Origin: an uncultured cyanobacterium
GTDB taxonomy: Bacteria > Cyanobacteriota > Cyanobacteriia > Cyanobacteriales > CAWUOF01
Assembly (NCBI GenBank): GCA_963744145.1
Contig: CAVUSO010000001.1
Location: forward strand, 4,608,001-4,672,000
Length of the DNA: 64,000 bases
Direction: 5' to 3'
Shown: positions 5,197 through 64,000 of the stretch, one piece after another
How the letters are laid out: the number at the start of each line of letters is the position of its first letter
How positions within the stretch are numbered: position 1 is the stretch's first letter
Notes under the pieces: generated by a model
What the model saw: the letters and a program-made list of their open reading frames with translations, nothing else
What the model was told of the DNA's origin: nothing
Database searches by the model: none
Position numbers and translations under genes: made by a program

Positions 5197-7524
5197 TTAT
5201 AACCAAGCGTCCCATTCACCGATAATCTTTTTATTATACTGAAGGGCAAAAACACCTGTTAAAATCGCACGAGCTGCTTGCATAGCTGACATTACTGTAG
5301 CTTCCACACAGCCAGAGTTATAACCGTTATTAATCCAATCACCGACTAAATAAAGATGATTGAAACCAGATTCATCAGTTTTTAAACGGTATTTACTACT
5401 CCCTGGAACCGAAAGGACATAACGCTCTGATGGATCAATATTAACACGCCAATATTGAGAATTAAATCTTTTCTGTCCTATTTGATTGTCTAAATCAACT
5501 AACAAGTTCCAATTCAGTCCTTGGGGATTGTCTGGTCGAGTAGCTTCGGGCCACAAATTCCCAATTTGGTTTTCTAAGAAGTTGATTGCTTGTTGTTCAA
5601 TTTTTTGCTGCTCTCGGTGAGGAAAATCGCGATCGCTACTCGGTGGAATGCCTGGATCAGCAATTACACCAGTAAAATAGGCGATACTATAGGGAGAATG
5701 TTCGGAAGGCCAATTTTCCGCTTGAATGAGATCGCTCAGATCAGCGTAGGTATCTAATGGTTCCACATAGGAACCTACAACCGGACTAGACAAGTTCCAT
5801 CCTAGTTGCTGTAATTTCGGTTTTAGCCACAATTGTCCCCCTTGGGTGGTAACTGTGGCAATTTGGTCTACCATATTTGCCCATTTTTGATGAGCTGGAT
5901 TTTTTTCAGCCTGAATCAATTCCTCACATATAAATGGTAAAGCTGCTAAAGAAATCCCTAAGATGACTAAATCAAAGTCTTTTCCCTGGGTTAAATTAAT
6001 TGGTGTTTCTTGATCTTGCCAAGGAGTCCAAAAAGATTCTAAATTAATCTTCTCTTGTTGAAGTTGATCTGCTTCCACAATTTGGTCATAGAGAGGTTCA
6101 CTGGGCCAGCAAAGTAAATCTTTTACTCTGATCAGAGGTTGATATTCTAAATCAGGATTTTTCAGATGTACCTGACGTCCAATGGAAATACTGGTAATCG
6201 ATCGCTGGGATTCATCAAGATGTAGGTGTTTGACACGATGGAAAAATTCAAATTTAACCCCTCGACGTTTCAACACTTGATAAAGAGGTGTAAAAATAGT
6301 ATCTCCCATGCCAGCCTGCATTTTCCACATGATCGCACCATGATACTGGAAGATAATAGTAAAAAAAATGCGAAGAGCAGTACCTGCGGCTAATCTAGGC
6401 TGTTGAATATTCCCCTTGGGAAAGGCATAAACTAGATCGTATAAAACCCGAATAAAAGCAGAATTTACGCTACTTTTCTTAGCGCCATGATGAAGTAACC
6501 ACTCTTTATAATCGTATTCATCTAATTCCGCTAGGGAACGACCATAAATTATTTCATCGACGATCAACCCACGAATATTAGCAAGTCCTAAATCTAACAA
6601 GGTTAAAATCCTGACCACATCCTCATTTTGGGTTAACTCTGATCGGAGTGCCTCGTTTAACCGATCCATAAATAGTTGTAGCAAATGCAGGATCAGGTGA
6701 TGGTGTTCTCTTCGATGAAAACGGGGATGATTTGGTAGAGATTTAGCGATTTGATAAGCCAGAGTAAGTAAAGTTGATTCAGCCGATAAATTAATGGTTT
6801 CTAAAATGGTTATTATTTGTTTAGTCGAGTCTTCTAGCCATTTTAACCAGCGGATTGGTTCCTGAATTAATAATTGAATTAGCTGTTGGGGAAAATGAAG
6901 TAATGTTGCGGCTGAGATCAATCTAAAAATATCCCAACTCATGTTCATTTGTTTAACTAAAAGTTCTAGCCATTCTGGATAACTGGATCTAGATGATCGA
7001 TGACTAGATAACTTGGCTTTTAAATATTCAGAACTTTCAAAAACCTCAGCCATTAATTTGATAATTGTGCTTATATGTTCCCATAATGCAAACTTACCTC
7101 CCCCTTCCCAAGGTAATAATTTATTAGTCGGAAAATCAAATGGCCATGAAACCCATTTACCATTAAGGTATTCTTGTAAAACAACTAAGCTATGGGGTTT
7201 AAAAGCATCTTCGATCGTCGCAAATGGACCGTCTTCTCCTAACTCTTCATAACACTGTTTCATCATTTTAAAAGCATTCTCATAAAAGCCGAAGAAAATA
7301 TGCAATCCATGTTCCTCAATCCGATAAGTTGGTTCGTGGTAAGGTTGATGTTCCTTGATATCTCTACCAGAAGCTCCTTTACCACCTAAACGCCAACCTT
7401 GTTGATATACAGTAATATCATACATGGCATTCCATCCAGGTTGATTAGTCAGTTCAAAAACTGTAGTTAAGGATGCTAATCCCCCTCCTAAAACAGCAAT
7501 TTTTTTCAGTTCAGGTGTTTCCAT
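5197..7524 (-). CDS. FAD/NAD(P)-binding oxidoreductase (amine oxidase / desaturase-like fold), function unknown
   Basis: N-terminal dinucleotide-binding IAVLGGGLA, RLGGK, EHGLHIFFGFY; C-terminal LYLVGDW...GCVEATVMS. Confidence 0.8.
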   Translation of the reverse strand: METPELKKIAVLGGGLASLTTVFELTNQPGWNAMYDITVYQQGWRLGGKGASGRDIKEHQPYHEPTYRIEEHGLHIFFGFYENAFKMMKQCYEELGEDGPFATIEDAFKPHSLVVLQEYLNGKWVSWPFDFPTNKLLPWEGGGKFALWEHISTIIKLMAEVFESSEYLKAKLSSHRSSRSSYPEWLELLVKQMNMSWDIFRLISAATLLHFPQQLIQLLIQEPIRWLKWLEDSTKQIITILETINLSAESTLLTLAYQIAKSLPNHPRFHRREHHHLILHLLQLFMDRLNEALRSELTQNEDVVRILTLLDLGLANIRGLIVDEIIYGRSLAELDEYDYKEWLLHHGAKKSSVNSAFIRVLYDLVYAFPKGNIQQPRLAAGTALRIFFTIIFQYHGAIMWKMQAGMGDTIFTPLYQVLKRRGVKFEFFHRVKHLHLDESQRSITSISIGRQVHLKNPDLEYQPLIRVKDLLCWPSEPLYDQIVEADQLQQEKINLESFWTPWQDQETPINLTQGKDFDLVILGISLAALPFICEELIQAEKNPAHQKWANMVDQIATVTTQGGQLWLKPKLQQLGWNLSSPVVGSYVEPLDTYADLSDLIQAENWPSEHSPYSIAYFTGVIADPGIPPSSDRDFPHREQQKIEQQAINFLENQIGNLWPEATRPDNPQGLNWNLLVDLDNQIGQKRFNSQYWRVNIDPSERYVLSVPGSSKYRLKTDESGFNHLYLVGDWINNGYNSGCVEATVMSAMQAARAILTGVFALQYNKKIIGEWDAWL

Positions 7525-49659: not shown

Positions 49660-52600
49660 ATGTTCACTCACGTCAAGCCCACCATTCGTCACATTGCCCC
49701 AGATGACCTCCGGGGGCGATCGCTTCTCCAGGTGGTCTATGTCGTGCTAGAAGCCCAGTATCAGAGTGCCCTATCCGGGGCAGTTCGCTCGATTAATCAA
49801 AATAATCCCAATATAGCCATTGATCTCAAAGGATATTTAATCGAGGAACTGCGGCATCCTGAAAACTATGAGGACTTCAAGCGAGATATTGCAAGTGCCA
49901 ATATATTTATCGCGTCCCTAATTTTCATTGAAGATTTAGCAGATAAACTGGTAGAAGCAGTAGAACCACACCGGGAACACCTTGATGTTGCTGTAGTATT
50001 TCCATCGATGCCCCAAGTGATGCGTCTCAATAAAATGGGTAGTTTTTCGATGGCTCAATTAGGTCAATCGAAAAGCGCGATCGCCCAGTTTATGCGGAAG
50101 CGGAAGGAAAAATCAGGTTCTGGTTTCCAAGATGGAATGCTCAAGCTCCTCCAAACCTTGCCCAAAGTCCTGAAATATCTTCCTATGGATAAAGCTCAGG
50201 ATGCTCGGAATTTTATGCTGAGTTTCCAATATTGGTTAGGTGGTTCCCAAGAAAATCTGGAAAACTTCCTGCTGATGTTAGCAGATAAATATGTTTTCAA
50301 AGGTAATAAACTCAGTTTTCAAGAACCAGTCGTTTACCCAGATATGGGAATTTGGCATCCTTTAGCATCCCAAATGTTTGAAGATGTTAAAGAATATCTG
50401 AATTGGTATAACAGTCGTCAAGATATTTCTGATGATCTCAAAGACCCCCTAGCACCTTGTATTGGGTTAGTATTACAACGGACTCACCTAGTTACCCGTG
50501 ATGATGCTCACTATGTAGCAATGGTGCAGGAAATCGAAGCAATGGGAGCGCGGGTAATTCCAGTTTTTGCTGGTGGGTTAGATTTTTCCAAACCAGTAGA
50601 TGCTTTCTTTTATGATGCGGTTAGCAAAGTACCAAATAGCATCGTTGATACGGTAGTTTCTTTGACTGGATTTGCGCTAGTTGGTGGACCTGCACGTCAA
50701 GATCATCCCAAAGCGATCGAGTCTTTGAAAAGATTAAATCGCCCCTACATGGTAGCCTTACCTTTGGTATTTCAAACTACGGAAGAATGGCAAGATAGTG
50801 ATTTAGGGTTACACCCGATTCAAGTAGCTCTGCAAATAGCAATTCCAGAATTAGATGGATCGATCGAGCCAATTATTTTATCAGGAAGAGATGGTGCTAC
50901 AGGAAAAGCGATCGCGCTCCAAGATCGAATTGAAGCAGTAGCTCAACGCGCTCTCAAATGGGCAAATCTCCGTCGTAAACCGAAACTAGATAAAAAAATC
51001 GCCATTACGATCTTTAGTTTCCCACCCGATAAAGGTAATGTTGGTACTGCTGCATATTTAGATGTTTTTGGTTCCATCTATAAAGTGATGGAAGCTCTCA
51101 AAAACAATGGTTATGATGTGCAAGATTTACCCGAATCTAGTGCAGCATTGATGCAAGAAGTAATCCATGATGCTACTGCTCAATATGCTACTCCAGAATT
51201 AAATATTGCCTATCGAATGTCAGTCGCAGAATATGAACAACTGACACCCTATTCTACCCGATTAGAGGAAAACTGGGGGGCACCTCCGGGACATTTGAAT
51301 AGTGATGGACAAAATTTGCTAATTTATGGTAAACAATTCGGGAATGTGTTTATCGGAGTTCAACCAACTTTTGGTTATGAAGGTGATCCGATGAGGTTGC
51401 TCTTCTCCCGTTCTGCTAGTCCCCATCACGGTTTTGCTGCATACTATACCTATCTAGAGCGAATCTGGGATGCTGATGCGGTGCTACACTTTGGTACTCA
51501 TGGTTCCTTAGAATTTATGCCCGGTAAACAAATTGGAATGTCTGGAGATTGTTATCCAGATAGTTTAATTGGCAAAATTCCCAATCTCTATTATTATGCA
51601 GCCAATAATCCCTCAGAAGCAACTATTGCGAAACGTCGGAGTTATGCAGCGACTATTTCTTATCTAACTCCCCCAGCAGAAAATGCTGGTTTATATAAGG
51701 GTTTGCAGGAATTAAGCGAATTGATTAGTTCCTACCAAACTCTGAAAAATACCGGACGGGGAGTGCCGATCGTCAATACGATCATGGATAAATGTCGTTT
51801 GGTGAATTTAGATCAAGATATCAATTTGCCCGACCAAGATGCGATCGCGATGACTCCAGAAGAACGCGATCAAATCGTGGGACAAGTTTATCGACGATTG
51901 ATGGAAATTGAATCTCGTTTATTACCCTGTGGATTGCACGTTATTGGTAAACCACCAACTGCTGAAGAAGCGATCGCGACATTGGTAAATATTGCAGCAT
52001 TAGATCGTGAGGAAGAAGCAATTACTAGCTTACCTCGGATTATTGCTCAGAGCATTGGACGTAACATTGATGAGATTTATCAAAATAACGACAAAGGTGT
52101 TTTAGCTGATGTTGAGTTACTCCAAGATATCACAATGGCAACTCGCAGTGCTGTAGCTGCTTTAGTCAAAGAACAAACTGATGCTGATGGACGAGTTTCC
52201 CTAGTTTCTAAGCTCAATTTCTTCCACATGGGCAAAAAAGAGCCTTGGATTGAAGCTTTGCATACAGCAGGTTATAAAAAAGTCGATCCGGAACTAATTA
52301 AACCTCTGTTTGAATACTTGGAATTCTGTCTACAACAAGTCTGTGCTGATAATGAATTAGGGGCACTTTTGCGATCGCTCGAAGGTGAATATATTATCCC
52401 TGGACCGGGAGGAGATCCAATTCGGAATCCCGATGTGCTTCCCACTGGGAAAAATATGCACGCTCTCGATCCGCAATCAATTCCTACTGCGGCAGCAGTC
52501 AAATCAGCTAAGATTGTAGTAGATCGACTATTAGCGCGACAAAAAGCAGACAACGGTGGTAATTACCCAGAGACGATCGCTTGTGTACTGTGGGGAACAG

Positions 52601-53634
52601 ACAATATTAAAACCTACGGAGAATCCCTCGCGCAAATCATGTGGATGGTAGGAGTTAAACCAGTTCCCGATGCTTTAGGACGAGTGAATAAGTTAGAACT
52701 AATTTCCTTAGAAGAATTAGGAAGACCTCGGGTAGATGTGGTAATTAACTGTTCCGGTGTATTCCGTGACTTATTTATCAACCAGATGAATCTGTTAGAT
52801 AAAGCCGTAAAAATGGCAGCAGAAGCAGAAGAACCCCTGGAAATGAACTTTGTCCGCAAACACGCATTAAAACAAGCCGAAGAAATGGGCATTAATTTGC
52901 GCCAAGCAGCGACTCGGGTATTTTCTAATGCGTCTGGTTCCTATGCTTCTAACGTCAATTTAGCCGTAGAAAATAGCACTTGGGAAAAAGAATCAGAATT
53001 GCAGGAAATGTACCTAACTCGTAAATCTTTTGCTTTTTCCTCTGACAATCCGGGCACAATGGAACAGGATCGACAGATATTTGAATCAGCATTAAAAACC
53101 GCTGAAGTCACCTTCCAAAACTTAGATTCATCAGAAATTAGTTTAACGGATGTTTCCCACTATTTCGACTCTGATCCAACTAAAGTTGTCGCCACTTTGC
53201 GCGGAGATGGAAAAGCACCAGCAGCATTTATTGCAGATACAACCACAGCTAATGCTCAGGTAAGAACATTAACAGAAACCGTGCGTTTAGATGCACGGAC
53301 TAAGATGTTAAATCCCAAATGGTATGAGGGGATGTTGTCCCATGGTTATGAAGGAGTGCGGGAACTTTCCAAACGTCTCGTTAACACAATGGGATGGAGT
53401 GCAACTGCTGGTGCTGTTGATAATTGGGTGTATGAAGATGTGAATACTACCTTTATCAAAGATGAGGAAATGCAAAAGCGGTTAATGAACTTGAATCCTC
53501 ATTCGTTCCGAAAGATGGTCAGCACACTATTAGAAGTGAATGGTCGGGGTTATTGGGAGACTTCGGAGAATAATTTGGATCGCTTACGTCAATTATATCA
53601 GGAGGTAGAAGATCGGATTGAAGGAGTAGAATAG
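49660..53634 (+). CDS. chlH: Magnesium chelatase subunit H
   Basis: [12 protein letters not shown]-terminus, [27 protein letters not shown]; 1324 aa; AAGGAG SD. Confidence 0.98.
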
Positions 53635-53646
53635 AGTTAAGTTGGA

Positions 53647-53673
53647 GTAGGGCAGGCAATATGCCTGCCTTTT
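53647..53673 (+). terminator. GTAG-type hairpin probably acting as chlH terminator
   Basis: GTAG-GGCAGGCA-ATA-TGCCTGCC-TTTT. Confidence 0.65.
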
Positions 53674-53700
53674 AAATATTAAGGAATTAAATCAAAAATT

Positions 53701-53880
53701 ATGCAAATTTTCACCTTTTATTCTCAGGTAAGCTCAGATGGAATATTACGTCTTGAATTACCTATTAACACCCCAAATTCAGACCTAAAAGTTACCGGGA
53801 GTGTCCAGCAGATTAATAACTCTAAAAGAAGTCATACAGATTCTAAAAAACGCTTTGAGCAGATGCTAAAAAAAATATGA
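53701..53880 (+). CDS. Small 59-aa protein resembling cyanobacterial antitoxin-like proteins, possibly truncated
   Basis: Hand-translated: MQIFTFYSQVSSDGILRLELPINTPNSDLKVTGSVQQINNSKRSHTDSKKRFEQMLKKI*; below the ORF-track cutoff. Confidence 0.5.
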   Translation: MQIFTFYSQVSSDGILRLELPINTPNSDLKVTGSVQQINNSKRSHTDSKKRFEQMLKKI

Positions 53881-53886
53881 AGAAAG

Positions 53887-54273
53887 TTAAGTAGGAGGAT
53901 TATCCTCTTGATTACGCTGATTAATCAGAATATCAAGCATCCGTCTTGTCTCAATTCTCAAACCCACAATTTCTTCTTGCTGTCGATCCATTCTTTGAAA
54001 TAACTGTTCTCGTTCTTCCCTAGCTTCTGCTGCCACATTTGCTAATGCTTGAATAACGCGAGCATTACTCTCAATTAAGCGATTGTTATTCTCCGTTGCG
54101 ATCGCAATATTATCCACCCGATTGGTCAAAGTTTCGAGGGAACTAGCGATATTATCTACCCGATTGGTCAAACCTTCTACCGAACTAGCTATACTATCTA
54201 CCCGATTGGTCAAACCTTCTACCGAATTAGCTAGACGATCTAGTCTCGCATCATCCCATTGCTGTCTACTCAT
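53887..54273 (-). CDS. Small coiled-coil protein, paralog A
   Basis: MSRQQWDDARLDRLA..., heptad repeats (VEGLTNRVD); the track start at 54288 is an alternative. Confidence 0.75.
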   Translation of the reverse strand: MSRQQWDDARLDRLANSVEGLTNRVDSIASSVEGLTNRVDNIASSLETLTNRVDNIAIATENNNRLIESNARVIQALANVAAEAREEREQLFQRMDRQQEEIVGLRIETRRMLDILINQRNQEDNPPT

Positions 54274-54389
54274 AGTTTTTTTTTCCAAAATTGCTGATTT
54301 TTATCATAATTTAGATTTTAGTTATTTTACTAATCATGCCGCGATCGCCTGTTTTTCTACGGTGCGATCGCGCCGACTTTATAATTGAG

Positions 54390-54713
54390 TTAAGCAGTAG
54401 GATTATCCCCTTGGTTACGCTGATTGATTAGAATATCAAGCATCCGTCTTGTCTCAATTCTCAAACCCACAATTTCTTCTTGCTGACGATCCATCCTTTG
54501 AAATAACTGATCCATCCTTTGAAATAACTGTTCCCGTTCTTCCCTGGCTTCTGCTGCCACATTTGCTAAAGCTTGAATAATGCGAGCATTACTCTCGATC
54601 AGGCGATTGTTGTTCTCAATAGCGCGATTATTATTCTCAATAGCGCGAGTATTACTCTCAACCATATTGGCCAATCGGTCTAGCCGCTCATCATCCCAGC
54701 GTTCTGTACTCAT
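54390..54713 (-). CDS. Small coiled-coil protein, paralog B
   Basis: MSTERWDDERLDRLA...; C-terminal half nearly identical in DNA to paralog A. Confidence 0.78.
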   Translation of the reverse strand: MSTERWDDERLDRLANMVESNTRAIENNNRAIENNNRLIESNARIIQALANVAAEAREEREQLFQRMDQLFQRMDRQQEEIVGLRIETRRMLDILINQRNQGDNPTA

Positions 54714-55439
54714 ATATTTTCTCTTTTCCTCTACTTTTTAGGATAACTTCAATTTTAATTCCTTTGCGTAGATGCCGCGATCGCCCCGACTTTCCTTATT
54801 ATACTAGCTTCCACCTCTGTCTATCCAAAAATATCTCCCTCAACTACAGCCCAATTTCTCTTTTATCCGTTGACAGTGTTCTACAATTTTTGGCTCTTTC
54901 GGCATTTGGTGGTAAAATGTAACTGCTAATACATTTTACGAGGTAGTCAAAAATGGACTTGCACCTAGATATTTTACTAAATTTGCCTAATGTAACGGTT
55001 TTTACTTGTGATCAGAAAGAAGAATTCACGGATTCTAAAACTGGATTTATTGAACGATAAAATTAGTTGTGTTTACTACGGAAAATCGACGGATGAAATC
55101 TATCAAATTCGTCCGATTTTAGTCAGGGATTTATCAATTTGTGGTCAAGGAGTATATCTCCAAGTACCAAGACGACAAATTTATTGTCCATCTTGTAAAA
55201 AATACTCAACCGCAGCTTTAGATTTTGTAGAAAAAGGTCGTAATTATACTAAGAGATCCGAGGAATATATTTATGAGCGAGTCAAAGAATTAACAGTAGA
55301 GCAAGTGAGTCGTCATGAACAACTAAGTGCAGAACAAGTGCAAAATATCTTTTCAAGAATTGCCAAAACTAAAAAAAAGACTGGTTGCTACCAGAAAGAC
55401 TGAGTTGAGATAAATTCAGTAAAGAAAAAGGAAAAGGAA

Positions 55440-55463
55440 TGTTTCGACTCCGCTCAACACAAG
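55440..55463 (-). repeat. 24-bp small dispersed repeat inserted in the ISL3 transposase
   Basis: TGTTTCGACTCCGCTCAACACAAG; removing it restores KGKGKFVTVVSD. Confidence 0.85.
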
Positions 55464-55590
55464 AGTTTGTTACGGTAGTTAGTGACCTTGATCAAGGGTC
55501 ATTATTAGAAGTTATAGATTCCCATAAAAGTGATGAGATTATAGAAGTCTTCAAGACTCAACCCCTTGCTATAAGGGAGAATGTTAAGGA

Positions 55591-55618
55591 GTAGGGGCGT
55601 ATTGCAATACGCCCGTAC
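55591..55618. repeat. 28-bp GTAG REP-like palindrome inserted in the ISL3 transposase
   Basis: GTAGGGGCGTATTGCAATACGCCCGTAC, between NVKE and IDMWGG; two mismatches from the 34338 copy. Confidence 0.85.
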
Positions 55619-55939
55619 ATAGATATGTGGGGCGGTTTTCCGAAAGTTATAAAAGAAGTTTTTCCTCATACCTTAATTGTAATTGACAGGTTTCATGTCA
55701 TGCAGCTAGTAAATAAGGCTGTCAATAAAATCCGACTTATGTTAAATTTAAAAGGTTTAAAAAATCGCTACTTACTTATTAAAAATGCTAGCAATTTAAC
55801 TGAATCAGAAAAAATCGAGCTGGAACAATTATTGAATTGTTCTCCTTGTTGAAGAATTGCTGATGATTTGAAAGAAGAATTAAGAGATATTTATGAAACC
55901 AGTAATACAGTAAAAATGGGATTGAAAAGATTGAAAAAA

Positions 55940-55963
55940 CTTGTGTTGAGCGTAGTCGAAACA
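55940..55963 (+). repeat. 24-bp small dispersed repeat, second copy in opposite orientation
   Basis: CTTGTGTTGAGCGTAGTCGAAACA; adds LVLSVVET in frame within LKRLKK/WLG. Confidence 0.85.
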
Positions 55964-56205
55964 TGGTTAGGTTTTGCTCGGATAATCTTAGGGCAAGTTG
56001 CTGACACTCTATCAAAGCATATTCAAGAAATTTGTAACTATTTTGTCAGTAAAACAACTAGTGGGAAAAGGTCAGAAATTAGTAACAAGATTAAATTGAT
56101 TATTAGACAAAGCTATGGGTTCAAAAGGTTTGATTATTTACGAGAAAAACTATTAGCTTGCTTATTTTAATAAGTCGTACTTATCACCACAGATCCGGGA
56201 GAGCC

Positions 56206-56537
56206 AAATTACCTTCTTCGTAGGATTTTCAATAAACTGTCTTTTCCAGTTCTGACACTGATATTTCTGTTTTTTATTATGAATTCTACCATTTTTGACC
56301 ACATGACTAGAACCACAATTAGGACAACTAAGGTTTTCGTTTGACATCCTGTAATAAACCGAGAAATTTGCTTAGATTATTTTCAGATTAGCAGATTTTT
56401 CTCCAAATTAGGATGAGGAAATTCTATCTACTTAATCTAAATTAATAATTATTATTAATAGTCAGACTTATAATTAAGTAATAACAAGTAAATTTGAACA
56501 GGAAAAATTTGCTCATCACTACATTTTTGGCACTACC
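56206..56537 (-). mobile_element. IS1-family remnant (terminal repeat and zinc-finger N-terminus) abutting the ISL3 end
   Basis: MSNENLSCPNCGSSHVVKNG..KQKYQCQNWKRQF from 56347; end sequence GGTAGTGCCAAAAATGTAGTGATG on the minus strand from 56537. Confidence 0.72.
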
Positions 56538-56545
56538 GAATTGTC

Positions 56546-56588
56546 TTTCTCCCCATTCCCTGGTAGGGAAGGGGGTTGGGGGGTTAGG
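56546..56588. repeat. G/C-run intergenic repeat (CTCCCC..TTCCC..GGGAAGGGGGTTGGGGGGTTAGG type)
   Basis: Imperfect hairpin plus G-tracts at the helicase 3' end; single copy in this window. Confidence 0.5.
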
Positions 56589-56594
56589 TCTGAT

Positions 56595-58076
56595 TTAGAA
56601 GGGAGGTTCTTTCAACTCTGAATCTTCTTCCCATTTAGCTGGAGATTCCGCAGCACGTTTATTATTATGCTTGGGAACATCATAGAGAGAAGGAGATTTT
56701 TGTGCTTTGGTTTCACCATGACGACGCATAGATGTACCTTCCTCAGCAGTATCTTCTGCGATTACTTCATATAATATCGCTTGTTTATTTTGCTCCGTTC
56801 CTTTCCGAAGCACTCTCCCTAAACGTTGAATATATTCCCGTTGAGAACCAGTTCCAGATAACAGAATTGCTACTCTTGCATCGGGTACGTCAACACCCTC
56901 ATTTAAAACATGGGATGCGACTAAGGTTTTATATTCACCGCTCCGAAAACGAGTTAAAACTTGGTGACGTTCTTTGATTGGTGTTTGATGGGTAATTGCA
57001 GGGATTAGAAATTCTTGAGAAATCCGATAAACAGTAGCATTGTCTGCGGTAAAAATGAGAATACGTTCGGGGTGATGTTGGGATAGTAAATCAGCTAATA
57101 TGCGAATTTTGCTGCTAGTTCCCTGGGAGATTTCTTTAGCTTGTCGATGTGCTAACATCGCTCTTCTTCCCGCAGACGATCGCGCACTTGCTTGTACAAA
57201 TAATTGCCAACCTTCCATTTTCCCCAAGGAAATATGAGCGGTTCGCAAAAATTCATTACGAGTTTTAATTAGTTGATTATAGAGTTCTCGTTCTTGCTGG
57301 GATAGTTTAACCTTAATTTGGACAATTTTATGATCAGCTAAAGCTGCTCCAGCTAATTCTTCCGCAGTTTTCCGATAAACTTCTGGACCAATTAAAACCT
57401 GCAAATCTAAATGTTTCTGATCGGAACGTTCTGGTGTTGCTGTTAATCCTAATCGATAGGGTGCGATCGCATATTCGGCAATGACTCGGTTAAAATCTGT
57501 AGGTAAGTGGTGACATTCATCAAAAATCACTAAAGCATAACGATTTCCCAGGGATTCAGCATGGATTGCTGCACTATCATAGGTCGCGACCAAAATTGCA
57601 GTGCGATCGCGAGAACCTCCTCCTAATAATCCTATTTCTGCATCAGGAAAAGCCGCAACTAAATGAGCATACCATTGGTGCATTAAATCTAATGTTGGTA
57701 CTACGACTAGGGTACTACGAGGAGTAGCTTCCATAGCTAATTGTGCTAAATAAGTCTTACCCGCAGCTGTCGGAAGAACTACTACACCTTGTCGTCCCGC
57801 TTGTTTCCAAGCAGTTAAAGCTTCTTGTTGATGAGGATAGGGAGTCATTACTAAACTCGGTACGAGTTCTAAAGGGACAAATCCCTTTGCTTCATCAATA
57901 AAATTACTTCCCTCTGCTTGGAGGGTTTCTACCAATCTGCGATAGTTGATTGCTTCAATCCGAAATTTTTCGACCCGATCGTCCCATGTCGCAAATTCCA
58001 CCCAAGATTTGCCCCTCGGTGGTGGATGTAATAGTAGTGTACCCCCATGAAATGTTAATGTTGGTGTGCGAGCCAT
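56595..58076 (-). CDS. SF2 DEAD/DEAH-box helicase (ResIII / XPB-like)
   Basis: LPTAAGKT, DECHH, LGLTATP, LNEGVDVP, YIQRLGRVLR. Confidence 0.92.
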   Translation of the reverse strand: MARTPTLTFHGGTLLLHPPPRGKSWVEFATWDDRVEKFRIEAINYRRLVETLQAEGSNFIDEAKGFVPLELVPSLVMTPYPHQQEALTAWKQAGRQGVVVLPTAAGKTYLAQLAMEATPRSTLVVVPTLDLMHQWYAHLVAAFPDAEIGLLGGGSRDRTAILVATYDSAAIHAESLGNRYALVIFDECHHLPTDFNRVIAEYAIAPYRLGLTATPERSDQKHLDLQVLIGPEVYRKTAEELAGAALADHKIVQIKVKLSQQERELYNQLIKTRNEFLRTAHISLGKMEGWQLFVQASARSSAGRRAMLAHRQAKEISQGTSSKIRILADLLSQHHPERILIFTADNATVYRISQEFLIPAITHQTPIKERHQVLTRFRSGEYKTLVASHVLNEGVDVPDARVAILLSGTGSQREYIQRLGRVLRKGTEQNKQAILYEVIAEDTAEEGTSMRRHGETKAQKSPSLYDVPKHNNKRAAESPAKWEEDSELKEPPF

Positions 58077-58106
58077 CTGTTTAGTATAGCTGGAAACCAG
58101 ATCATA

Positions 58107-59342
58107 TTAATAGCGCGATCGCCACCTCCACCACAATCGACCACCAAAATAGCCGCAGATAATTCCCATTATTATACTTATTATTAATGATAATCCAAAA
58201 TTAAAAACTGCATTACTAGGGATCATAATTTCCTTACCTTCCTCAAGTTTTTTAGCAGGAAATGGTGTGATTACTTCAATTAAAGGACTAATCACCGAAG
58301 CGGTTGCTGAAGTAACACCGATCGCAATGCCAAAGGTGGCAATTTCTAATTGTAAATCGCGATCGCTCTGGATTTGCTTACTAGCTACCATTGCGCGTAA
58401 ATTATCAATCCAGGTATTCCACACTTTTACTCTCGATGTCAGAACATCAATGTCTTTTTCTACCTGGATTTGATATTTTTCTTGAGCAATTTGACTAAAA
58501 TCGTTTAGACAAATTAGTTCAGTATTTAGCTGTTCTTCGTTTCGAGCTTTAATTTCGATGCTATTTAAACGTTCTTTATAGTTGAATAAATTTATTTTAA
58601 TCGTCTGCTGTTGGATTTCTAAGTAAGTTTGATCAGCAATAAATTTAGATAAAGTTTGGAGATTTTGACTTAGTTCTATTTTGAGATTCTCTAAATTTTT
58701 ATCAATATGATGATTTACTGATAGGGTTTGACTACTAGATGGGAAAAAATTAGCTGGTAAATTGAGTTGTAAAGTGTTACTATAAGCCCAGAGGATTTTA
58801 TTGCGGTAATAAAATAAGTTAACCCAATCTTCATAGAATTTATTAATTTTTTCTAAGGTAGTTTGATTAGGGAAAATTATAATTACAATTCGACTATTTT
58901 TTTCGGTAGTTAAGTCTTGCCAATTTTGGGTAGGTTGCCAAATTTCAAAAATCTTTCCCCCCATAAATTCCCCTGGTGTGGGGTTTTGGGGACATTTTTC
59001 TCCAGAAAATGATTCGTAGATGTTTTTAGCTAGGATGGTAGTATCTTTTGGCTCAATATTTTCTGGTAAATATCCTATTAACATCCAAGTTTTTGTCAGC
59101 TCTGTGGTTGGATGAAATTTTGAGTTTATGTTTTTTTGAAAGTCTCGAAAACAGCTAATTGGTTGAGGAGTTGCTGATTCTGAAGATGCGATCGAATAGC
59201 AATATAAATCAGCTTTGACATCAGATAATGGCAATTGTATCCAAAAATAGGTTTCTCCTTTTTGTGGATGGTTATCTAGGTTTGGTTGGTGGTTAAAGTG
59301 ATAGGTAAATAAAAATAGATGGGGATATTTTAATTCATTCAT
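58107..59342 (-). CDS. Hypothetical protein with coiled coil and two C-terminal TM helices (candidate membrane effector)
   Basis: Soluble N-terminal domain, long helical region, IATFGIAIGVTSATASVI and FGLSLIISIIMGIICGYFG hydrophobic segments, basic tail WWRWRSRY. Confidence 0.75.
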   Translation of the reverse strand: MNELKYPHLFLFTYHFNHQPNLDNHPQKGETYFWIQLPLSDVKADLYCYSIASSESATPQPISCFRDFQKNINSKFHPTTELTKTWMLIGYLPENIEPKDTTILAKNIYESFSGEKCPQNPTPGEFMGGKIFEIWQPTQNWQDLTTEKNSRIVIIIFPNQTTLEKINKFYEDWVNLFYYRNKILWAYSNTLQLNLPANFFPSSSQTLSVNHHIDKNLENLKIELSQNLQTLSKFIADQTYLEIQQQTIKINLFNYKERLNSIEIKARNEEQLNTELICLNDFSQIAQEKYQIQVEKDIDVLTSRVKVWNTWIDNLRAMVASKQIQSDRDLQLEIATFGIAIGVTSATASVISPLIEVITPFPAKKLEEGKEIMIPSNAVFNFGLSLIISIIMGIICGYFGGRLWWRWRSRY

Positions 59343-59499
59343 TAGTTATACCGATTGATCTGATGTGTTTGTTATTTTTCATTGCTGTGGAGTGAATGAT
59401 GAGAGTGTTTTGTGTTCTGGTTTAATTGATAGTTAACGGATTGATCCCCCAGAGCCAACCTTAATAAGGGCTAGGGAGGATCTAAATCTTCAGACTCTA

Positions 59500-59985
59500 C
59501 TATACTATATGTATAGGGACAATCTCATATAGCACTTCAGATATTTTTTTCACCATCTTTTCGGCACTTATTTTCAATGTATCAGTTGACTTAAGCATTT
59601 TGAGCAATTCATCTACCTCTTTCGTAAATAATTCATCTACCTCTTTCTTAAATTCCTCTAACGAATCCCTTGACAAATCAGAATTTCTGATCTCCTTATT
59701 CTCACGTTCAGGTAATCGTTCACCTTCATCTAGAGGCACCACACACTTATTACGCGGCTGTTGGTGCTTCATTAACTTATCATAATAAGCCTGAAATACA
59801 TCATTTAAAGATTTATCCTGATAGATAATCTGACTAAGTTCCTCCATCGCTGAAGAAAAATCCTCTTCAATTCGGGAACTGAGTTGTTTAATTTCACTTT
59901 CTACCTTACTATCAAGAGCATCTACATGATATAGCGTCGCCAAAAAAGCCCGAAAAATCAATTCATCTTCTAAAGTGTAATTCAT
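59500..59985 (-). CDS. Small acidic alpha-helical hypothetical protein
   Basis: 161 aa; 29 bp downstream of the TPR-CHAT gene; internal 24-bp duplication at 59606-59653. Confidence 0.75.
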   Translation of the reverse strand: MNYTLEDELIFRAFLATLYHVDALDSKVESEIKQLSSRIEEDFSSAMEELSQIIYQDKSLNDVFQAYYDKLMKHQQPRNKCVVPLDEGERLPERENKEIRNSDLSRDSLEEFKKEVDELFTKEVDELLKMLKSTDTLKISAEKMVKKISEVLYEIVPIHIV

Positions 59986-60014
59986 AAAACAATTGGGTAA
60001 TAAATTTCATCCTC

Positions 60015-63000
60015 CTATTCCTCATTACTAGCTTCATAACCAGTAATGGTAAAACCTGCCCAATAATAGGGATCTGCATAGGTCTTGATTTCCATTATAT
60101 CAGGTCTTTGGCGGATTTGGTTGCAGCTACTTTGCAGTGCTCGCCAACATTTTGACCCTTCCGGGATAGTTGTCATCAATTGTTCATACCATTCGATGAG
60201 ATTGCTTTTGGTGACTGTCCTGAGCCAATTTTGCGCTTGTTTTAGAGCAACGGGTGGTGCATGATCTGGGAGATTTTCGTAAAATTTTATCATCAGATTA
60301 GCTGTGGCAATGTCCTCTACTTCCCATAGGGTACTCACCACATATTTCGCCCCTTTAGCTAAAAACCCACTCCCTAAACCGACGTATTCGTTGATTAAAT
60401 CTTGGGAACTGGTTAAACCAGTTTCGCACGCGGACAGACAAATGAGATTATATCTGTGAAAATCTAGTTCAAAGATGTCGGTGAGGGTGAGTAATTCTTT
60501 CTGAGTTAATTGTAATCCTGAGTCTTCGGGATTGTCGAAATTATGAATCCCATGTCCGGTAAAATGGAAGATATCCCTACCTTGTTGGAGCGCCACTATT
60601 ACTCTATTTTTATCAGCACTTTGTTGGTTGAGCAACTGATGGGTTTGGGGGTATTTGTTGATAATTAGATCGGATTCAGTAGCAGAATAAACCATAGTCC
60701 CACTGGGATCTTTCACCATCAATAGGTTAGTAGGTGTGCTGTTTTCCCTGGGGAATCTTCGGCTCATTTTGATGGTAGGTAGGTAAGTGATGGTAAAGTT
60801 TTGCTCCCAAAACAGATAATGGAGGGGTAGGAGATGGAAGTCACGATGGGGACTCAGGATCAGGTGGGTGATTCCAGTCAGATATTGCTGGCAAATTGTT
60901 TCTATATTGAGGATTTCCTTGAGGTTATTTAAACTGGTTTCTAGGTGTTTTTGCCAATCTTTGAGACTAGGGTTTTGAGCATCTTTGTGCTTATTTTTTC
61001 GGGAATTTTGATATTCGCTTTTCCATGTTTTCAACCATTCTTCTAGGGAGGACAGATGTTCCTTTCGATCCAATGTGAAGGGATAGATGTCTGTGGTAAT
61101 AACTTGGGGATCTCCTGAGTGTCTAATGATAAAGGTGGTGAGGGAAAATGGGCTTAGGTGCCAATAAATTATCGCTGTTTGGGGCTGATTTGTCAGTAAT
61201 CCTTGGATCTGGGCAAAAGTAGGGCTATCGATTTGGTCGGGATTTTGCCAACCTGTTTCCATCCATTTGAGAGATTGGTTTTTCCGTCTTTCCGCTGTTT
61301 CTAGAGCAAGGATTTGCTGTCCAGACTGAACTAATTGCTCAATCTTAAATTGGGAAAATGCGCTAAATTTGCGGTTGAATCGTAGTTTTATTTCTGCTGG
61401 AGTGTCATGATCTAACCTTAAATTCTCTAGTAGGTTAGTACCTTGATCAAGATATTCATCAGCTTGACTATCTCCTAAAGCGCGACAGACAATGATTAAT
61501 GCTTGTAAGACTTCTAGATAAGTCTCAGTAATTATATAATTCTTAGCAATAAGGGCAGATTTTAGGAATTCGCAGGCTTGTTCATAGCTAGCTTTGGCTT
61601 TACAGAAATATACTGACTGAAAATTTGTTCTTTTACCATATTTGTAATGTGCCTCGCCTTTTTGCTGATGCAATGTACCACAAGCTAGACGATAGTCAGG
61701 GTTACTTTCCTGATATTTCTTTAAGCCTTCATCCCAGTTTTTAATAGCTTCTTCGTAGCGATCGGAATCAAAAAACGCCAAACCTCGATTATTCCAAGAT
61801 TGCCAATCTTGATCTTTGGCAATATATAAGGCGCGGTCATAAGCGGCGATCGCCTCCTTGTATCTCCCTAAATGATAGAGGACAATGCCCCGTCCGCCAT
61901 GGGGAGCAGCGTAGTTGGGGTCTAGGGCGATGGCGCGGTCATAAGCCTCGATCGCCTCGTTATATCTCCCTAACTCACTGAGGACATTGCCCCGTCCGTG
62001 ATGGGAAGCGGTGATGTTGGGGTCTAGGGCGATGGCGCGGTCATAAGCCTCGATCGCCTCGTTATATCTCCCTAAATTAGCGAGGACATTGCCCCGTCCG
62101 TGATGGGAAGCGGCGTCGTTGGGGTCTAGGGCGATGGCGCGGTCATAAGCCTCGATCGCCTCGTTATATCTCCCTAACTCACTGAGGACATTGCCCCGTC
62201 CGTGATGGGAAGCGGCGTCGTTGGGGTCTAGGGCGATGGCGCGGTCAAAAGCCTCGATCGCCTCGTTATATCTCCCTAAATTAGCGAGGACATTGCCCCG
62301 TGCCGTATGGGGACGGGCGATGTTTGGGTCTAGGGCGATGGCGCGGTCATAAGCCTCGATCGCCTCGTTATATCTCCCTAACTCACTGAGGACATTGCCC
62401 CGTGCCCTATGGGGAGGGGCGATGTTGGGGTCTAGGGCGATAGCGCGGTCAAAAGCCTCGATCGCCTCGTTATATCTCCCTAAATTAGCGAGGACATTGC
62501 CCCGTGCCGTATGGGGACGGGCGATGTTTGGGTCTAGGGCGATGGCGCGGTCATAAGCCTCGATCGCCTCGTTATATCTCCCTAACTCACTGAGGACAGT
62601 GCCCCGTCCGTGATGGAAAGGGGCGATGTTGGGGTCTAGGGCGATGGCGCGGTCATAAGCCTCGATCGCCTCGTTATATCTCCCTAACTTACTGAGGACA
62701 GTGCCCCGTCCGTGATGGGGAGGGGCGATGTTGGGGTCTAGGGCGATGGCGCGGTCAAAAGCCTCGATCGCCTCGTTATATCTCCCTAACTCACTGAGGA
62801 CATTGCCCCGTCCGTGATGGGAAGCGGTGAAGTTGGGGTCTAGGGCGATGGCGCGGTCAAAAGCCTCGATCGCTCCTTTTAAATCCCCTGCATAGTAACG
62901 AGCTACCCCTTGATTATATAAATCTTTTGGATCTTCTCCTTCGTTCTTAGGTTTCCTTGCCAACAATTCTCGCCCAATCTTTCCCGCTATCTTCGATATT

Positions 63001-63344
63001 TTCTCGTAATTTGCCTCACTCAACAGTAACAGTCGCTCACCTAATTCTAAATTCAATTCAGGGGATGCAAGAACGCGATCGCCAAATTCTTGCAGCCATT
63101 TGTCCCAATCTATATTCTGATTTTTGATCAAAAACACTTTGAGCTGGACACGAATACCATCCAATTTCACACTTTGGAGGAATGGCAAAAATATCTGTTC
63201 GCACTCACTAAAAGAAGGTTCTGGATCTGGAGGTGGAGGTGTCTGGGGTGGTGGGGATTTGAGGAAAAGTTGCTTGACTCGCTGCCACAGTTGGCACAGT
63301 TTTTGCCAGATGCGTTGGAACATAGGAGAATCTGGTGAACTCAT
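60015..63344 (-). CDS. TPR-repeat CHAT-domain (caspase-like) protease
   Basis: 10 near-identical 34-aa TPRs; CHAT motifs LSPHRDFHLLPLH, FHFTGHG (His), CLSACETG (Cys), VVSTLWEV, PYYWAGF. Confidence 0.93.
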   Translation of the reverse strand: MSSPDSPMFQRIWQKLCQLWQRVKQLFLKSPPPQTPPPPDPEPSFSECEQIFLPFLQSVKLDGIRVQLKVFLIKNQNIDWDKWLQEFGDRVLASPELNLELGERLLLLSEANYEKISKIAGKIGRELLARKPKNEGEDPKDLYNQGVARYYAGDLKGAIEAFDRAIALDPNFTASHHGRGNVLSELGRYNEAIEAFDRAIALDPNIAPPHHGRGTVLSKLGRYNEAIEAYDRAIALDPNIAPFHHGRGTVLSELGRYNEAIEAYDRAIALDPNIARPHTARGNVLANLGRYNEAIEAFDRAIALDPNIAPPHRARGNVLSELGRYNEAIEAYDRAIALDPNIARPHTARGNVLANLGRYNEAIEAFDRAIALDPNDAASHHGRGNVLSELGRYNEAIEAYDRAIALDPNDAASHHGRGNVLANLGRYNEAIEAYDRAIALDPNITASHHGRGNVLSELGRYNEAIEAYDRAIALDPNYAAPHGGRGIVLYHLGRYKEAIAAYDRALYIAKDQDWQSWNNRGLAFFDSDRYEEAIKNWDEGLKKYQESNPDYRLACGTLHQQKGEAHYKYGKRTNFQSVYFCKAKASYEQACEFLKSALIAKNYIITETYLEVLQALIIVCRALGDSQADEYLDQGTNLLENLRLDHDTPAEIKLRFNRKFSAFSQFKIEQLVQSGQQILALETAERRKNQSLKWMETGWQNPDQIDSPTFAQIQGLLTNQPQTAIIYWHLSPFSLTTFIIRHSGDPQVITTDIYPFTLDRKEHLSSLEEWLKTWKSEYQNSRKNKHKDAQNPSLKDWQKHLETSLNNLKEILNIETICQQYLTGITHLILSPHRDFHLLPLHYLFWEQNFTITYLPTIKMSRRFPRENSTPTNLLMVKDPSGTMVYSATESDLIINKYPQTHQLLNQQSADKNRVIVALQQGRDIFHFTGHGIHNFDNPEDSGLQLTQKELLTLTDIFELDFHRYNLICLSACETGLTSSQDLINEYVGLGSGFLAKGAKYVVSTLWEVEDIATANLMIKFYENLPDHAPPVALKQAQNWLRTVTKSNLIEWYEQLMTTIPEGSKCWRALQSSCNQIRQRPDIMEIKTYADPYYWAGFTITGYEASNEE
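61812..62873 (-). repeat. 102-bp tandem repeat array (10 units plus a partial unit) encoding TPRs
   Basis: Recurring GGGTCTAGGGCGATGGCGCGGTC...GCCTCGATCGCCTCGTTATATCTCCCTAA with 102-bp period; visibly more GC-rich than flanking DNA. Confidence 0.97.
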
Positions 63345-63384
63345 AAGAAAATATTAACAGAATTTTGTCCGGATTGGTAGGATT

Positions 63385-63514
63385 TGTAGGGGCGAGTTCA
63401 CCGATCAATTTTGTGACCAATCGATCACTATCATAACCCCGCCCAACCAACACAGATCACTCACAATTAACATTAAATTACAAATTTATCGGACAGGCAA
63501 GATGCCTGTCCCAC
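63385..63514. repeat. Two REP-like palindromes upstream of TPR-CHAT
   Basis: TGTAGGGGCGAGTT...AACCCCGCCC (63385-63444) and GGACAGGCAAGATGCCTGTCCCAC (63491-63514). Confidence 0.65.
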
Positions 63515-63756
63515 ACAATCTTACTGTACTTTATCAACAAGGAATGTGTTGTATTGACGGGATGATGGAGCGAGTTTCTAATATTGATTAGAGTAATTAA
63601 GGATTATTTGCGATCGCTTGATTCCAACTAGATATGGCTGAGAAATCGTCATAATTTAGTAGTCTTGACTGGCGATAAAATTCATGTTCTGATAAACTAA
63701 TATATGAGCGGAAAACCTGAATCTAACTATCAAATTGCTATCCCAGGAGAACCCAG

Positions 63757-64000
63757 ATGAGATTTATTAGTCCCAAAATTGATTATGCCTTTAAAAAAAT
63801 CTTCGGTTCGAGCCAAAGTGAACAAATTTTAATTAGTTTTCTGAATGCAATTATGTATAATGGGGAGAAAATCATTGAATCCCTCAATATTGTCAATCCC
63901 TATAATCCGGGTCAAGTGGTCAGTTTAAAGGAGTCTTATTTAGATGTAAAAGCGGTCTTAACCGATGGTTCAATAATTCTGATCGAAATGCAAATAGCTC
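63757..64000 (+). CDS. Rpn family recombination-promoting nuclease / putative transposase (5' part only)
   Basis: AGGAG SD, then MRFISPKIDYAFKKIFGS...LISFLNAI...SYLDVKAVLTDGSIILIEMQ (PD-(D/E)XK motif). Confidence 0.88.
   Translation, partial: MRFISPKIDYAFKKIFGSSQSEQILISFLNAIMYNGEKIIESLNIVNPYNPGQVVSLKESYLDVKAVLTDGSIILIEMQIA

Follow-up and report, generated by a model that had tools for sequence, protein, structure and literature searches.

A conserved three-gene module of a TPR-CHAT protease, a small helical protein and a CorA-like membrane protein in cyanobacteria, most likely of the predicted CATRA kind

Death effectors that are licensed by proteases are emerging as a main logic of bacterial immunity, in parallel to caspase-gasdermin signalling in animals. 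Bacterial gasdermins are membrane-damaging effectors licensed in this way, the type III-E CRISPR Craspase contains the TPR-CHAT protease Csx29 acting with Csx30, and Borvo (BovA) is a defence system made of a single CHAT gene. A further kind, the CATRA/CATASP system, was reportedly defined as a computational prediction by Burroughs and Aravind in 2020. Here we describe three adjacent genes, encoding a TPR-CHAT protease (gene 1), a small helical protein (gene 2) and a membrane protein (gene 3), that were found in a window of 64,000 nucleotides from an uncultured cyanobacterium (GenBank assembly GCA_963744145.1, contig CAVUSO010000001.1, positions 4,608,001 to 4,672,000 of the forward strand). 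The genome, denoted G000, is 7.7 Mb in 4 contigs. Unless a locus handle is given, positions are those of the window.

CATRA stands for 'Caspase and TPR repeat-associated' (PMC12657218) and CATASP for 'CATRA-associated small protein' (10.1101/2025.11.14.688446); these and the other papers cited are drawn on in excerpt throughout. The system has been termed a caspase-dependent ternary conflict system (PMC8195603), and its printed operon strings are 'TPR+Caspase', 'CATASP' and 'CATRA-N+CATRA-C+GT4' (PMC8195603 fig6-data1). The three-gene architecture that an earlier note on this DNA had brought up thus exists in print. CATRA/CATASP is listed among widespread uncharacterised modules, CATASP being among those whose functions 'remain poorly understood', and the legend of Fig. 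1 of the same paper lists CATASP among 'protease-associated effector domains' (Evans et al., 2025, 10.1101/2025.11.14.688446). A later paper of the naming group calls CATASP a ligand-binding domain (10.64898/2026.10.19.760177). Our search of the printed literature for experiments on CATRA or CATASP returned passing mentions only, and cyanobacterial examples with two transmembrane (TM) helices may sit in the supplements of papers available solely on bioRxiv. The supplements of 10.1101/2025.11.14.688446 contain no CATRA or CATASP text, and a literature search combining TPR-CHAT, CorA and effector gave nothing relevant.

Genes 1 to 3 are one conserved functional module of multicellular cyanobacteria, and judged by its component list the module most likely belongs, as a cyanobacterial representative, to the CATRA kind that had been predicted before. 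The best explanation of its function, to which we assign roughly an even chance, is that the TPR-CHAT protease acts through gene 2 to license a CorA-like membrane effector in a system of the conflict or abortive-infection type. As a category the locus is not surprising; it is a compact, intact three-gene example of an uncharacterised protease-effector class. The kind of system was already known as a prediction, and what is added here is the CorA-like build predicted for the third protein, the near-strict dependence of the small protein's presence on that of the protease, linker motifs that each go with one protease class, a nearly invariant asparagine, relatives that lack a protease and the exclusion of a neighbouring XPB helicase from the module. 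The features of the module are the following, with the evidence in brackets (ORF, open reading frame; aa, amino acids; AF2, AlphaFold2).

60015..63344, minus strand: gene 1, TPR-CHAT caspase-fold protease, 1109 aa (ORF list, Pfam)
62940..63344, minus strand: N-terminal domain of gene 1, ~135 aa, no known family (no Pfam match; tblastn)
61710..62936, minus strand: TPR array of gene 1, ~residues 137-545 (Pfam, Tandem Repeats Finder)
60039..60929, minus strand: CHAT domain of gene 1, residues 806-1102 (Pfam)
60552-60554 and 60426-60428, minus strand: codons of His931 and Cys973 of gene 1 (motif positions)
59500..59985, minus strand: gene 2, small acidic protein, 161 aa, predicted to be helical, CATASP-like by position (ORF list, AF2)
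59683..59685, minus strand: codon of Asn101 of gene 2, in the motif E-(I/L/V)-x-N (family alignment)
58107..59342, minus strand: gene 3, 411 aa, predicted CorA-like architecture, CATRA-like by position (ORF list, AF2, Foldseek)
58872..59342, minus strand: predicted N-terminal alpha/beta domain of gene 3, residues 1-157 (AF2 secondary structure)
58269..58343, minus strand: predicted TM1 of gene 3, ~residues 334-358, Gly/Ala/Ser-rich, no GMN (hydropathy, sequence, family consensus)
58131..58217, minus strand: predicted TM2 of gene 3, ~residues 376-404, followed by the basic tail WWRWRSRY (hydropathy, sequence)

The three genes are co-oriented on the minus strand with intergenic gaps of 29 bp (genes 1 and 2) and 157 bp (genes 2 and 3), as the earlier note had it to the base. 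Pfam recognises 12 TPR_1 stretches in gene 1 and, at residues 806-1102, a CHAT domain (E 9.1e-40; 137 bits, the cut-off being 24). The catalytic motifs that had been pointed out, FTGHG from residue 928 and SACETG from residue 971, contain His931 and Cys973, and in an alignment of related CHAT C-termini the His column is H in 19/20 and the Cys column C in 19/20 sequences. With these residues intact, gene 1 looks like an active clan-CD (CHAT) protease. Underlying its TPR array is a tandem repeat with a 102-bp unit (61830-62873; 10.2 copies, 91% matches), and because of this repeat array the local GC content rises to 0.51-0.57 over the array. The array is fast-evolving and is presumed to be the sensor. 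No Pfam family matched the first ~135 residues of gene 1 or the stretch between the TPRs and the CHAT domain. The N-terminal domain was found by tblastn at three other places in the genome (61%, 37% and 31% identity), namely the paralogous loci D and C described below and one 368-aa protein, and it may be a mobile adaptor module. In the 368-aa protein (G000:C1:4835058-4836164, minus strand) ~130 aa of this domain are present at 37% identity and no gene-3 relative adjoins.

Among described proteases gene 1 shares the TPR-CHAT architecture with Csx29, and the NCBIfam Csx29 model aligns with residues 762-1025. The score of 68.5 bits is however far below the NCBIfam cut-off of 300, the partner proteins are unrelated, and no ORF of the size of Cas7-11 lies within 52000-64000. 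With Borvo gene 1 has the CHAT protease in common, the PADLOC BovA models matching residues 885-1060, but these matches are weak and partial (E 2.9e-7; 27.9 and 15 bits) and Borvo lacks a small-protein or two-TM partner. Apart from BovA, gene 1 matched only TPR models in PADLOC-DB 2.0.

The combination of the three genes was found to recur. Gene 3 has three paralogs in this genome, and the three nearest paralogs of the gene 1 CHAT domain are found beside them, one with each; two of these loci (B and D) also hold a small gene of the gene 2 family.

Locus B: TPR-CHAT protein of 859 aa, small protein of 137 aa, gene-3-like protein of 471 aa
Locus C: TPR-CHAT protein of 968 aa, gene-3-like protein of 490 aa, no small gene
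Locus D (G000:C1:3072652-3075679): CHAT gene in two ORFs (251 + 181 aa), small protein of 153 aa, gene-3-like protein of 445 aa

Locus D is decayed, its split TPR-CHAT gene having lost most TPRs and the catalytic His region; its small-protein and gene-3-like genes look intact. In the closest relative (G212) the trio is kept, with amino-acid identities of 48% for gene 1, 44% for gene 2 and 59% for gene 3.

A profile search with gene 3 in 1.84 billion proteins gave 920 representatives at E<=1e-3 and 466 at E<=1e-30, and the best 150 matches were all 345-547 aa long. Relatives of gene 3 at E<=1e-5 were present in 68/401 cyanobacterial genomes (G000 included), with up to 5 matches per genome; among the matches listed, all were in the cyanobacterial order of the window itself, often several per genome. 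We then compared two samples of loci. The first comprised 37 places (the 29 best and another 8 from high in the ranking; for 12 of the 29 the flanks were enlarged). A small protein directly upstream of gene 3 was detected with an iterated hidden Markov model (HMM) in 31/37 places, and a caspase-fold protease was located within ~6 kb of gene 3 in 32/37. In 24/37 places this protease matched an HMM of the TPR-CHAT C-terminus, and the three that were checked with Pfam were all TPR+CHAT. In 8/37 it was a Peptidase_C14 domain in fusion with a STAND NTPase (8/8 confirmed by Pfam). The remaining 5/37 places were two where the contig ends within a TPR protein, and three that lack a protease. The small protein was thus present in 31/32 protease-linked places and in 0/5 others.

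The second sample consisted of 80 named loci collected via the peptide pattern LF[YC][YCD]R[NH]KIL, a route that biases it to that motif. Every one of the 80 comes from a cyanobacterium (Nostoc, Scytonema, Tolypothrix, Laspinema, Oscillatoria, Coleofasciculus, Prochloron, Xenococcaceae and others), and by what lies upstream of the gene-3 relative they divide as follows.

32/80 loci, TPR-CHAT-type protease on the same strand: small protein in 31
24/80 loci, C14-STAND-type protease, divergent: small protein in 23
17/80 loci, no protease, flanks intact: small protein in 0
7/80 loci, upstream region cut by a contig end: small protein in 4

Overall the small protein occurred in 58/80 loci, in 54/56 of those linked to a protease and in 0/17 of those without one. 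Part of what would have refuted the earlier note was a failure of genes 2 and 3 to co-occur with TPR-CHAT elsewhere; such co-occurrence was clearly found, with three more copies in this genome and in most of the related loci. Since the same order recurs in this genome and in most related loci elsewhere, the trio represents a conserved module and not a chance neighbourhood. One could still point to the rearrangement of the region by insertion sequence (IS) elements, and to scans for promoters and terminators that are uninformative, to argue that three unrelated genes came together fortuitously in an accessory region. With four occurrences of the order in this genome, and further ones in most of the related loci from other genera, we regard this as almost certainly wrong.

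The locus resembles the CATRA system in having a protease with TPRs and a caspase fold, a small protein that is CATASP-like by position and a third, larger protein, and further in a restricted phyletic range and STAND NTPase genes nearby or fused, as far as the excerpts of the CATRA papers go. The TPR and caspase-fold protease by which a CATRA neighbourhood is recognised is present as gene 1 and in 24/37 and 32/80 of the related loci. The printed CATRA operons also have an HTH+AP-ATPase+TPR gene nearby (PMC8195603), whereas no STAND gene was seen in the flanks read here. The third protein carries a C-terminal GT4 glycosyltransferase in the printed CATRA forms and two predicted TM helices here; its cytosolic part of ~330 aa would fit the size of the non-GT4 part in the printed proteins of 694-904 aa (PMC8195603). 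The printed CATRA gene order is not matched, as protease, small protein and gene 3 are all on one strand. In the relatives with a caspase-STAND partner, the protease is divergent from the small-protein/gene-3 pair, and gene order may perhaps not be a defining feature of CATRA.

Gene 3 had been described beforehand as a soluble domain followed by a long coiled coil and two terminal TM segments, which agrees with the AF2 model and with hydropathy. The model, made from an alignment of 114 rows (mean predicted local distance difference test, pLDDT, 89.4; predicted TM-score 0.79), has an alpha/beta domain (1-157), long helices (160-191, 217-270 and 277-358), a hairpin (364-373) and a last helix (375-410), and hydropathy peaks at ~334-358 and ~376-404. 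Conserved residues of the N-terminal domain in the family alignment are Y6, F12, W86, N149 and I154. Gene 3 matched no family in Pfam, NCBIfam or PADLOC-DB 2.0. When its model was compared to the Protein Data Bank (PDB) with Foldseek, the top 35+ matches were all CorA magnesium channels over the whole length (E from 2.3e-5, probability up to 0.99). In a second look with VIA, CorA chains came first (Z 9.3, root-mean-square deviation, rmsd, 6.5, 165 residues aligned, model residues 192-400), followed by ZntB, Mrs2 and CmaX, the CorA/ZntB/Mrs2/CmaX chains ranging from Z 9.3 to 6.6; co-linear whole-length alignments paired model residues 5-406 with CorA 27-351. The CorA-like check proposed in the earlier note hence gave a positive answer, with regard to shape only. 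According to the model, gene 3 shares with CorA, Mrs2 and ZntB an N-terminal alpha/beta domain, long stalk helices that continue as TM1, a short loop on the outer side, TM2 and a C-terminal tail that is basic, and the model differs from them by an extra beta-hairpin in the outer loop. All parts of the CorA build are present in the model: the alpha/beta domain at the N terminus, the stalk helices and, at the C terminus, the two TM helices. We thus take gene 3 to be CorA-like in its predicted build and outside the CorA transporter family; the Pfam CorA model had no match at E<=1 in any of 14 members of the gene-3 family (gene 3 and 13 relatives), nor did these 14 match another Pfam family. As a membrane protein modelled like a CorA-family channel, it is presumed to be the effector. 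The Atlas gave two further leads for gene 3, MJ1566_N (0.92) and DUF3422 (0.88).

Gene 2 is, as had been noted, an acidic helical protein of 161 aa, with a pI of 4.78 and an all-helical AF2 model (mean pLDDT 83.3) that comprises a four-helix bundle (5-75), a coil of ~30 residues (76-105) and two C-terminal helices. No Pfam or NCBIfam family was matched, and PADLOC-DB 2.0 gave only a chance-level match (E 0.0031). The model had no Foldseek match in the PDB at E<=0.001, and the Atlas yielded only clusters of cyanobacterial hypothetical proteins scoring <0.9. In an alignment of 34 relatives the N-terminal domain is conserved (AFLxAL...PLP) and the linker variable. The column of Asn101 is N in 33/34, with E at -3 in 23/34 and I, L or V at -2 in 25/34, and this asparagine stands at the start of the conserved C-terminal segment. 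Motifs were counted against shuffled sequences because a global alignment of 59 small proteins misaligned the variable linker. In either of two forms, the E-(I/L/V)-x-N motif occurred in 79/91 distinct small proteins, against 29.0 +/- 4.2 in shuffled tails. An R-x-K-G-like motif was found in the linker of 31/58 TPR-CHAT-linked small proteins (6.3 +/- 2.4 in shuffles) and of 0/29 C14-STAND-linked ones (2.7 +/- 1.6), while a (T/K)-R-G-(F/Y)-like motif was found in 23/29 C14-STAND-linked (4.2 +/- 1.7) and 6/58 TPR-CHAT-linked small proteins (7.5 +/- 2.5). Asn101 may be a recognition or cleavage site, or only a part of a docking helix. We did not keep cleavage at Asn101 as a claim, since the residue is also the first of the conserved C-terminal segment and could just as well serve as cap or anchor of a docking helix.

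Because gene 2 occurs where the protease is present, it is presumed to be the link between the protease and gene 3. A different role can be considered: gene 2 might itself be the toxic effector that is activated by the protease, as in EACC1 and Pepco, with gene 3 as its membrane receptor, chaperone or immunity partner. The small protein does track the protease (54/56 versus 0/17), its linker has conserved short motifs that differ by protease class, and CATASP appears among the 'protease-associated effector domains' (10.1101/2025.11.14.688446). Gene 2, however, is acidic, looks soluble and lacks beta segments of a hydrophobic or amphipathic kind, some modules do without the small protein (locus C, L060 and L112), and the excerpted paper of the naming group speaks of a ligand-binding domain (10.64898/2026.10.19.760177). 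We therefore hold a toxic gene 2 to be quite improbable. A complex prediction of gene 3 residues 1-333 with gene 2, both entered as alignments, gave a score of 0.10 and a mark of 0.32, which amounts to no verdict.

The protease partner was found to be exchangeable. Among the eight C14-STAND proteins of the first sample, seven are nSTAND1 and five of those have long WD40 arrays; one protein has WD40 and GUN4, and one has TPR and RelA/SpoT-TGS-ACT. In L042 (9946-15687, plus strand) a protein of 1913 aa that adjoins a small-protein/gene-3 pair combines Peptidase_C14, an ATPase of the STAND type, TPRs and the whole of a RelA/SpoT-TGS-ACT alarmone synthetase region. In L047 (10007-14854, plus strand) a caspase-nSTAND1-WD40 protein likewise adjoining such a pair ends in a GUN4 tetrapyrrole-binding domain (Pfam E 4.1e-30).

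A constant gene 3 and small protein next to a protease that is swapped between two architectures are compatible with a common input no less than with a common output. The protease could accordingly be the effector and gene 3 a sensor of membrane or envelope disturbance that signals via gene 2, the protease cleaving cellular targets and stopping growth. Large repeat arrays and, in L042, RelA/SpoT output domains are already present in the protease partners, and CHAT proteases that stand alone figure among listed defence genes (PADLOC BovA; a weak match to gene 1, E 2.9e-7). TPR and WD40 arrays are, on the other hand, the usual sensor parts of STAND and TPR-CHAT proteins when fused to proteases, and the repeat turnover in the TPR array of gene 1 is typical of a diversifying sensor. 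In the characterised cases two-TM proteins beside proteases are effectors, as far as the excerpts of the source go (10.1101/2025.11.14.688446). We consider a protease that is itself the effector fairly unlikely.

In the reading with gene 3 as the licensed effector, a signal bound by the TPR array, or by the STAND-WD40 part in the other subtype, would activate the CHAT or other protease domain. The protease would then cut or capture the flexible linker or the C-terminal segment of gene 2, a direct cut of gene 3 being less likely, and the CorA-like gene 3 would thereby be released to open or assemble in the membrane. Ion leak and depolarisation would lead to growth arrest or death of the affected cell. 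A conflict system fits better than housekeeping because the modules are multi-copy, divergent and partly decayed, the sensor repeats turn over, STAND proteins are associated and the setting is accessory.

EACC1, Pepco and the bacterial gasdermins resemble this locus in that a caspase- or trypsin-type protease with a variable sensor (TPR, STAND/Avs) stands beside a non-enzymatic protein, and for EACC1 and Pepco the partner protein is thought or was shown to damage the membrane after cleavage (10.1101/2025.11.14.688446, in excerpt). Their effectors are small, soluble pro-proteins which, once cut at one place, form pores of the beta-barrel or ring type, in contrast to the candidate here, which would be a pre-inserted alpha-helical protein with two TM segments and has an additional small partner. 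On a more specific proposal, which we put forward tentatively and regard as rather doubtful, the small protein holds the pre-inserted CorA-fold channel shut, and once its linker is cleaved at class-specific sites the channel opens and the cell dies or is arrested. Candidate cleavage sites would be the basic motifs that go with the CHAT or with the C14 partner, or else E-phi-x-N. If true, this would add a new effector type to the protease-effector repertoire, an alpha-helical, already membrane-inserted death effector derived from a cation-channel fold and different from the pores of gasdermins, EACC1 and Pepco, and it would link the cell-suicide systems of multicellular cyanobacteria to that fold. 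The protease-less relatives with TPR-only partners would then show the housekeeping channel from which the effector was recruited. The locus offers testable features in its catalytic Cys and His, a small partner that tracks the protease, linker motifs that track the protease class and a CorA-like protein whose fold is predicted with confidence.

Several observations weigh against the assignment to CATRA and against a licensed CorA-like effector. The printed CATRA operons, as excerpted, are actinobacterial and mostly have CATASP beside TPR+Caspase and divergent from the CATRA gene (PMC8195603). No GT4-fused relatives of gene 3 were found at 226-949 aa, where the 64 matches were all 295-521 aa long and had no Pfam domain, and no relatives at all were found at 950-2710 aa (7999 scored candidates; weak evidence according to the tool). 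Genes 2 and 3 have no meaningful match in Pfam, NCBIfam or PADLOC, none of which includes models of CATRA-N, CATRA-C or CATASP. The CorA match is architectural only (TM-scores ~0.2, rmsd 6-18 A, 5-13% identity), its Z values lie within a range that is common for helical models according to the warning of the tool, and the wide VIA search gave mostly generic coiled coils, among which CorA 4ev6_A (Z 8.7) did not stand out. There is no GMN motif in the 411 aa of gene 3 or in the Gly/Ala/Ser-rich TM1 consensus of its family. The two locus samples may share species, and the relatives in them are not independent. As the two protease classes are separate clades, the difference in linker motifs is in effect one contrast. 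Finally, 17/80 gene-3 relatives lack both protease and small protein, some of them lying between housekeeping genes with a short TPR protein upstream; since such relatives exist, the gene-3 family is not tied to proteases and may have a physiological role as a channel.

Examples of gene-3 relatives that follow a short TPR-only protein are found in L063 (TPR protein at 5305-5988, plus strand, 227 aa) and L125 (6093-6566, plus strand, 157 aa), and the L063 arrangement recurs at the same position in related Laspinema/Oscillatoria loci. In the Laspinema group the protease-less gene-3 relatives lie between dxr (upstream) and a DUF697 GTPase gene (downstream), and in 5/9 of these loci the CHAT HMM had a match ~6.5 kb downstream on the other strand.

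To place these relatives a FastTree phylogeny of 78 gene-3 proteins was made from 74 of the 80 named loci and the four copies of this genome; L070, L075, L081, L084, L087 and L112 were left out (best ORF <380 aa). The method is a quick one, branches are long and the root is not established. The type of partner changed 6 times on this tree compared to a mean of 31.3 after shuffling, and a value as low was reached in 0/200 shuffles. All 23 C14-STAND-linked rows of the tree fell in one clade (98% support). The gene 3 of the window groups with locus D and a Desertifilum locus, and loci B and C belong to other clades. As the four modules of this genome are spread over different clades, they are mostly old divergent lineages and not recent copies. 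The protease-less Laspinema-type group is nested in protease-linked clades, which suggests loss, and a second, long-branch group of solo gene-3 proteins could be ancestral.

HetF is a CHAT protease with a developmental role in cyanobacteria, and the module might similarly be a physiological ion channel of filamentous cyanobacteria, regulated by proteolysis in stress, development or programmed cell death of filaments and not in conflict. This would accord with the conserved housekeeping neighbourhoods and short TPR-only partners of the protease-less gene-3 relatives, and with the limitation of the family to one cyanobacterial order in the samples searched. The PADLOC check that the earlier note had called for also failed to yield a meaningful profile match for genes 2 and 3. 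A genome with multiple divergent paralogous modules, one of them decayed, is however not what such a role predicts, nor are the link to STAND NTPases with WD40 arrays, the fast divergence (44% identity for gene 2 and 59% for gene 3 to the closest relative), the accessory setting rich in IS and Rpn genes and the nested position of the Laspinema-type group, which points to loss. A purely physiological channel is in our view unlikely.

The genes around the trio are given below.

56595..58076, minus strand: XPB-like superfamily 2 (SF2) helicase (XPB_DRD + ResIII + Helicase_C), a neighbour outside the module (Pfam)
55008-56170: ISL3 transposase in three pieces (Pfam)
56162-56347: fragment of an IS1 InsA-like zinc ribbon (Pfam)
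63757, start: Rpn-type PD-(D/E)XK (PDDEXK_2) gene, cut by the window end (Pfam)

The trio had been placed between IS remnants and an Rpn gene. Both are present, but that description omitted the XPB-like helicase, which separates gene 3 from the IS remnants and is located 30 bp downstream of the former. The helicase has a Pfam XPB_DRD match (E 1.3e-23) and reaches 194.6 bits with the NCBIfam XPB model against a cut-off of 610; its core also matches PADLOC PbeA (E 8.3e-53). It was considered as a fourth gene of the module and rejected, as no XPB helicase stands beside the trio in G212 or beside the paralogous loci B, C and D.

A scan for promoters and terminators gave 21 promoter-like sites (19.2 +/- 4.1 in shuffles) and 12 terminator-like sites (7.1 +/- 2.6 in shuffles), with no minus-strand site inside either intergenic gap, and is uninformative on an operon. 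The sequencing runs that cover part of the stretch are two DNA metagenome runs, no RNA run being listed.

The Rpn-type gene at 63757 is the first of five tandem co-oriented PDDEXK_2 genes with near-identical N-termini, which extend past the window end over G000:C1:4671757-4677387 and are followed by an ABC transporter. In two other loci, L036 (7105-7998, minus strand) and L037 (2834-3814, plus strand), the gene-3 relative is abutted or overlapped at its 3' end by a protein with an RNase H domain (Pfam E ~2e-43), and in both the upstream TPR protein is cut by the contig end. On the other side of the IS remnants, two small coiled-coil ORFs on the minus strand (53887-54288, 133 aa; 54390-54713, 107 aa) matched no family; they are paralogous, with internal LTNRVD-IASS repeats and identical C-terminal halves. 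DNA resembling these two ORFs (76-82% identity) was also found in G212, ~5.5 kb from the trio (L136 5611-5815).

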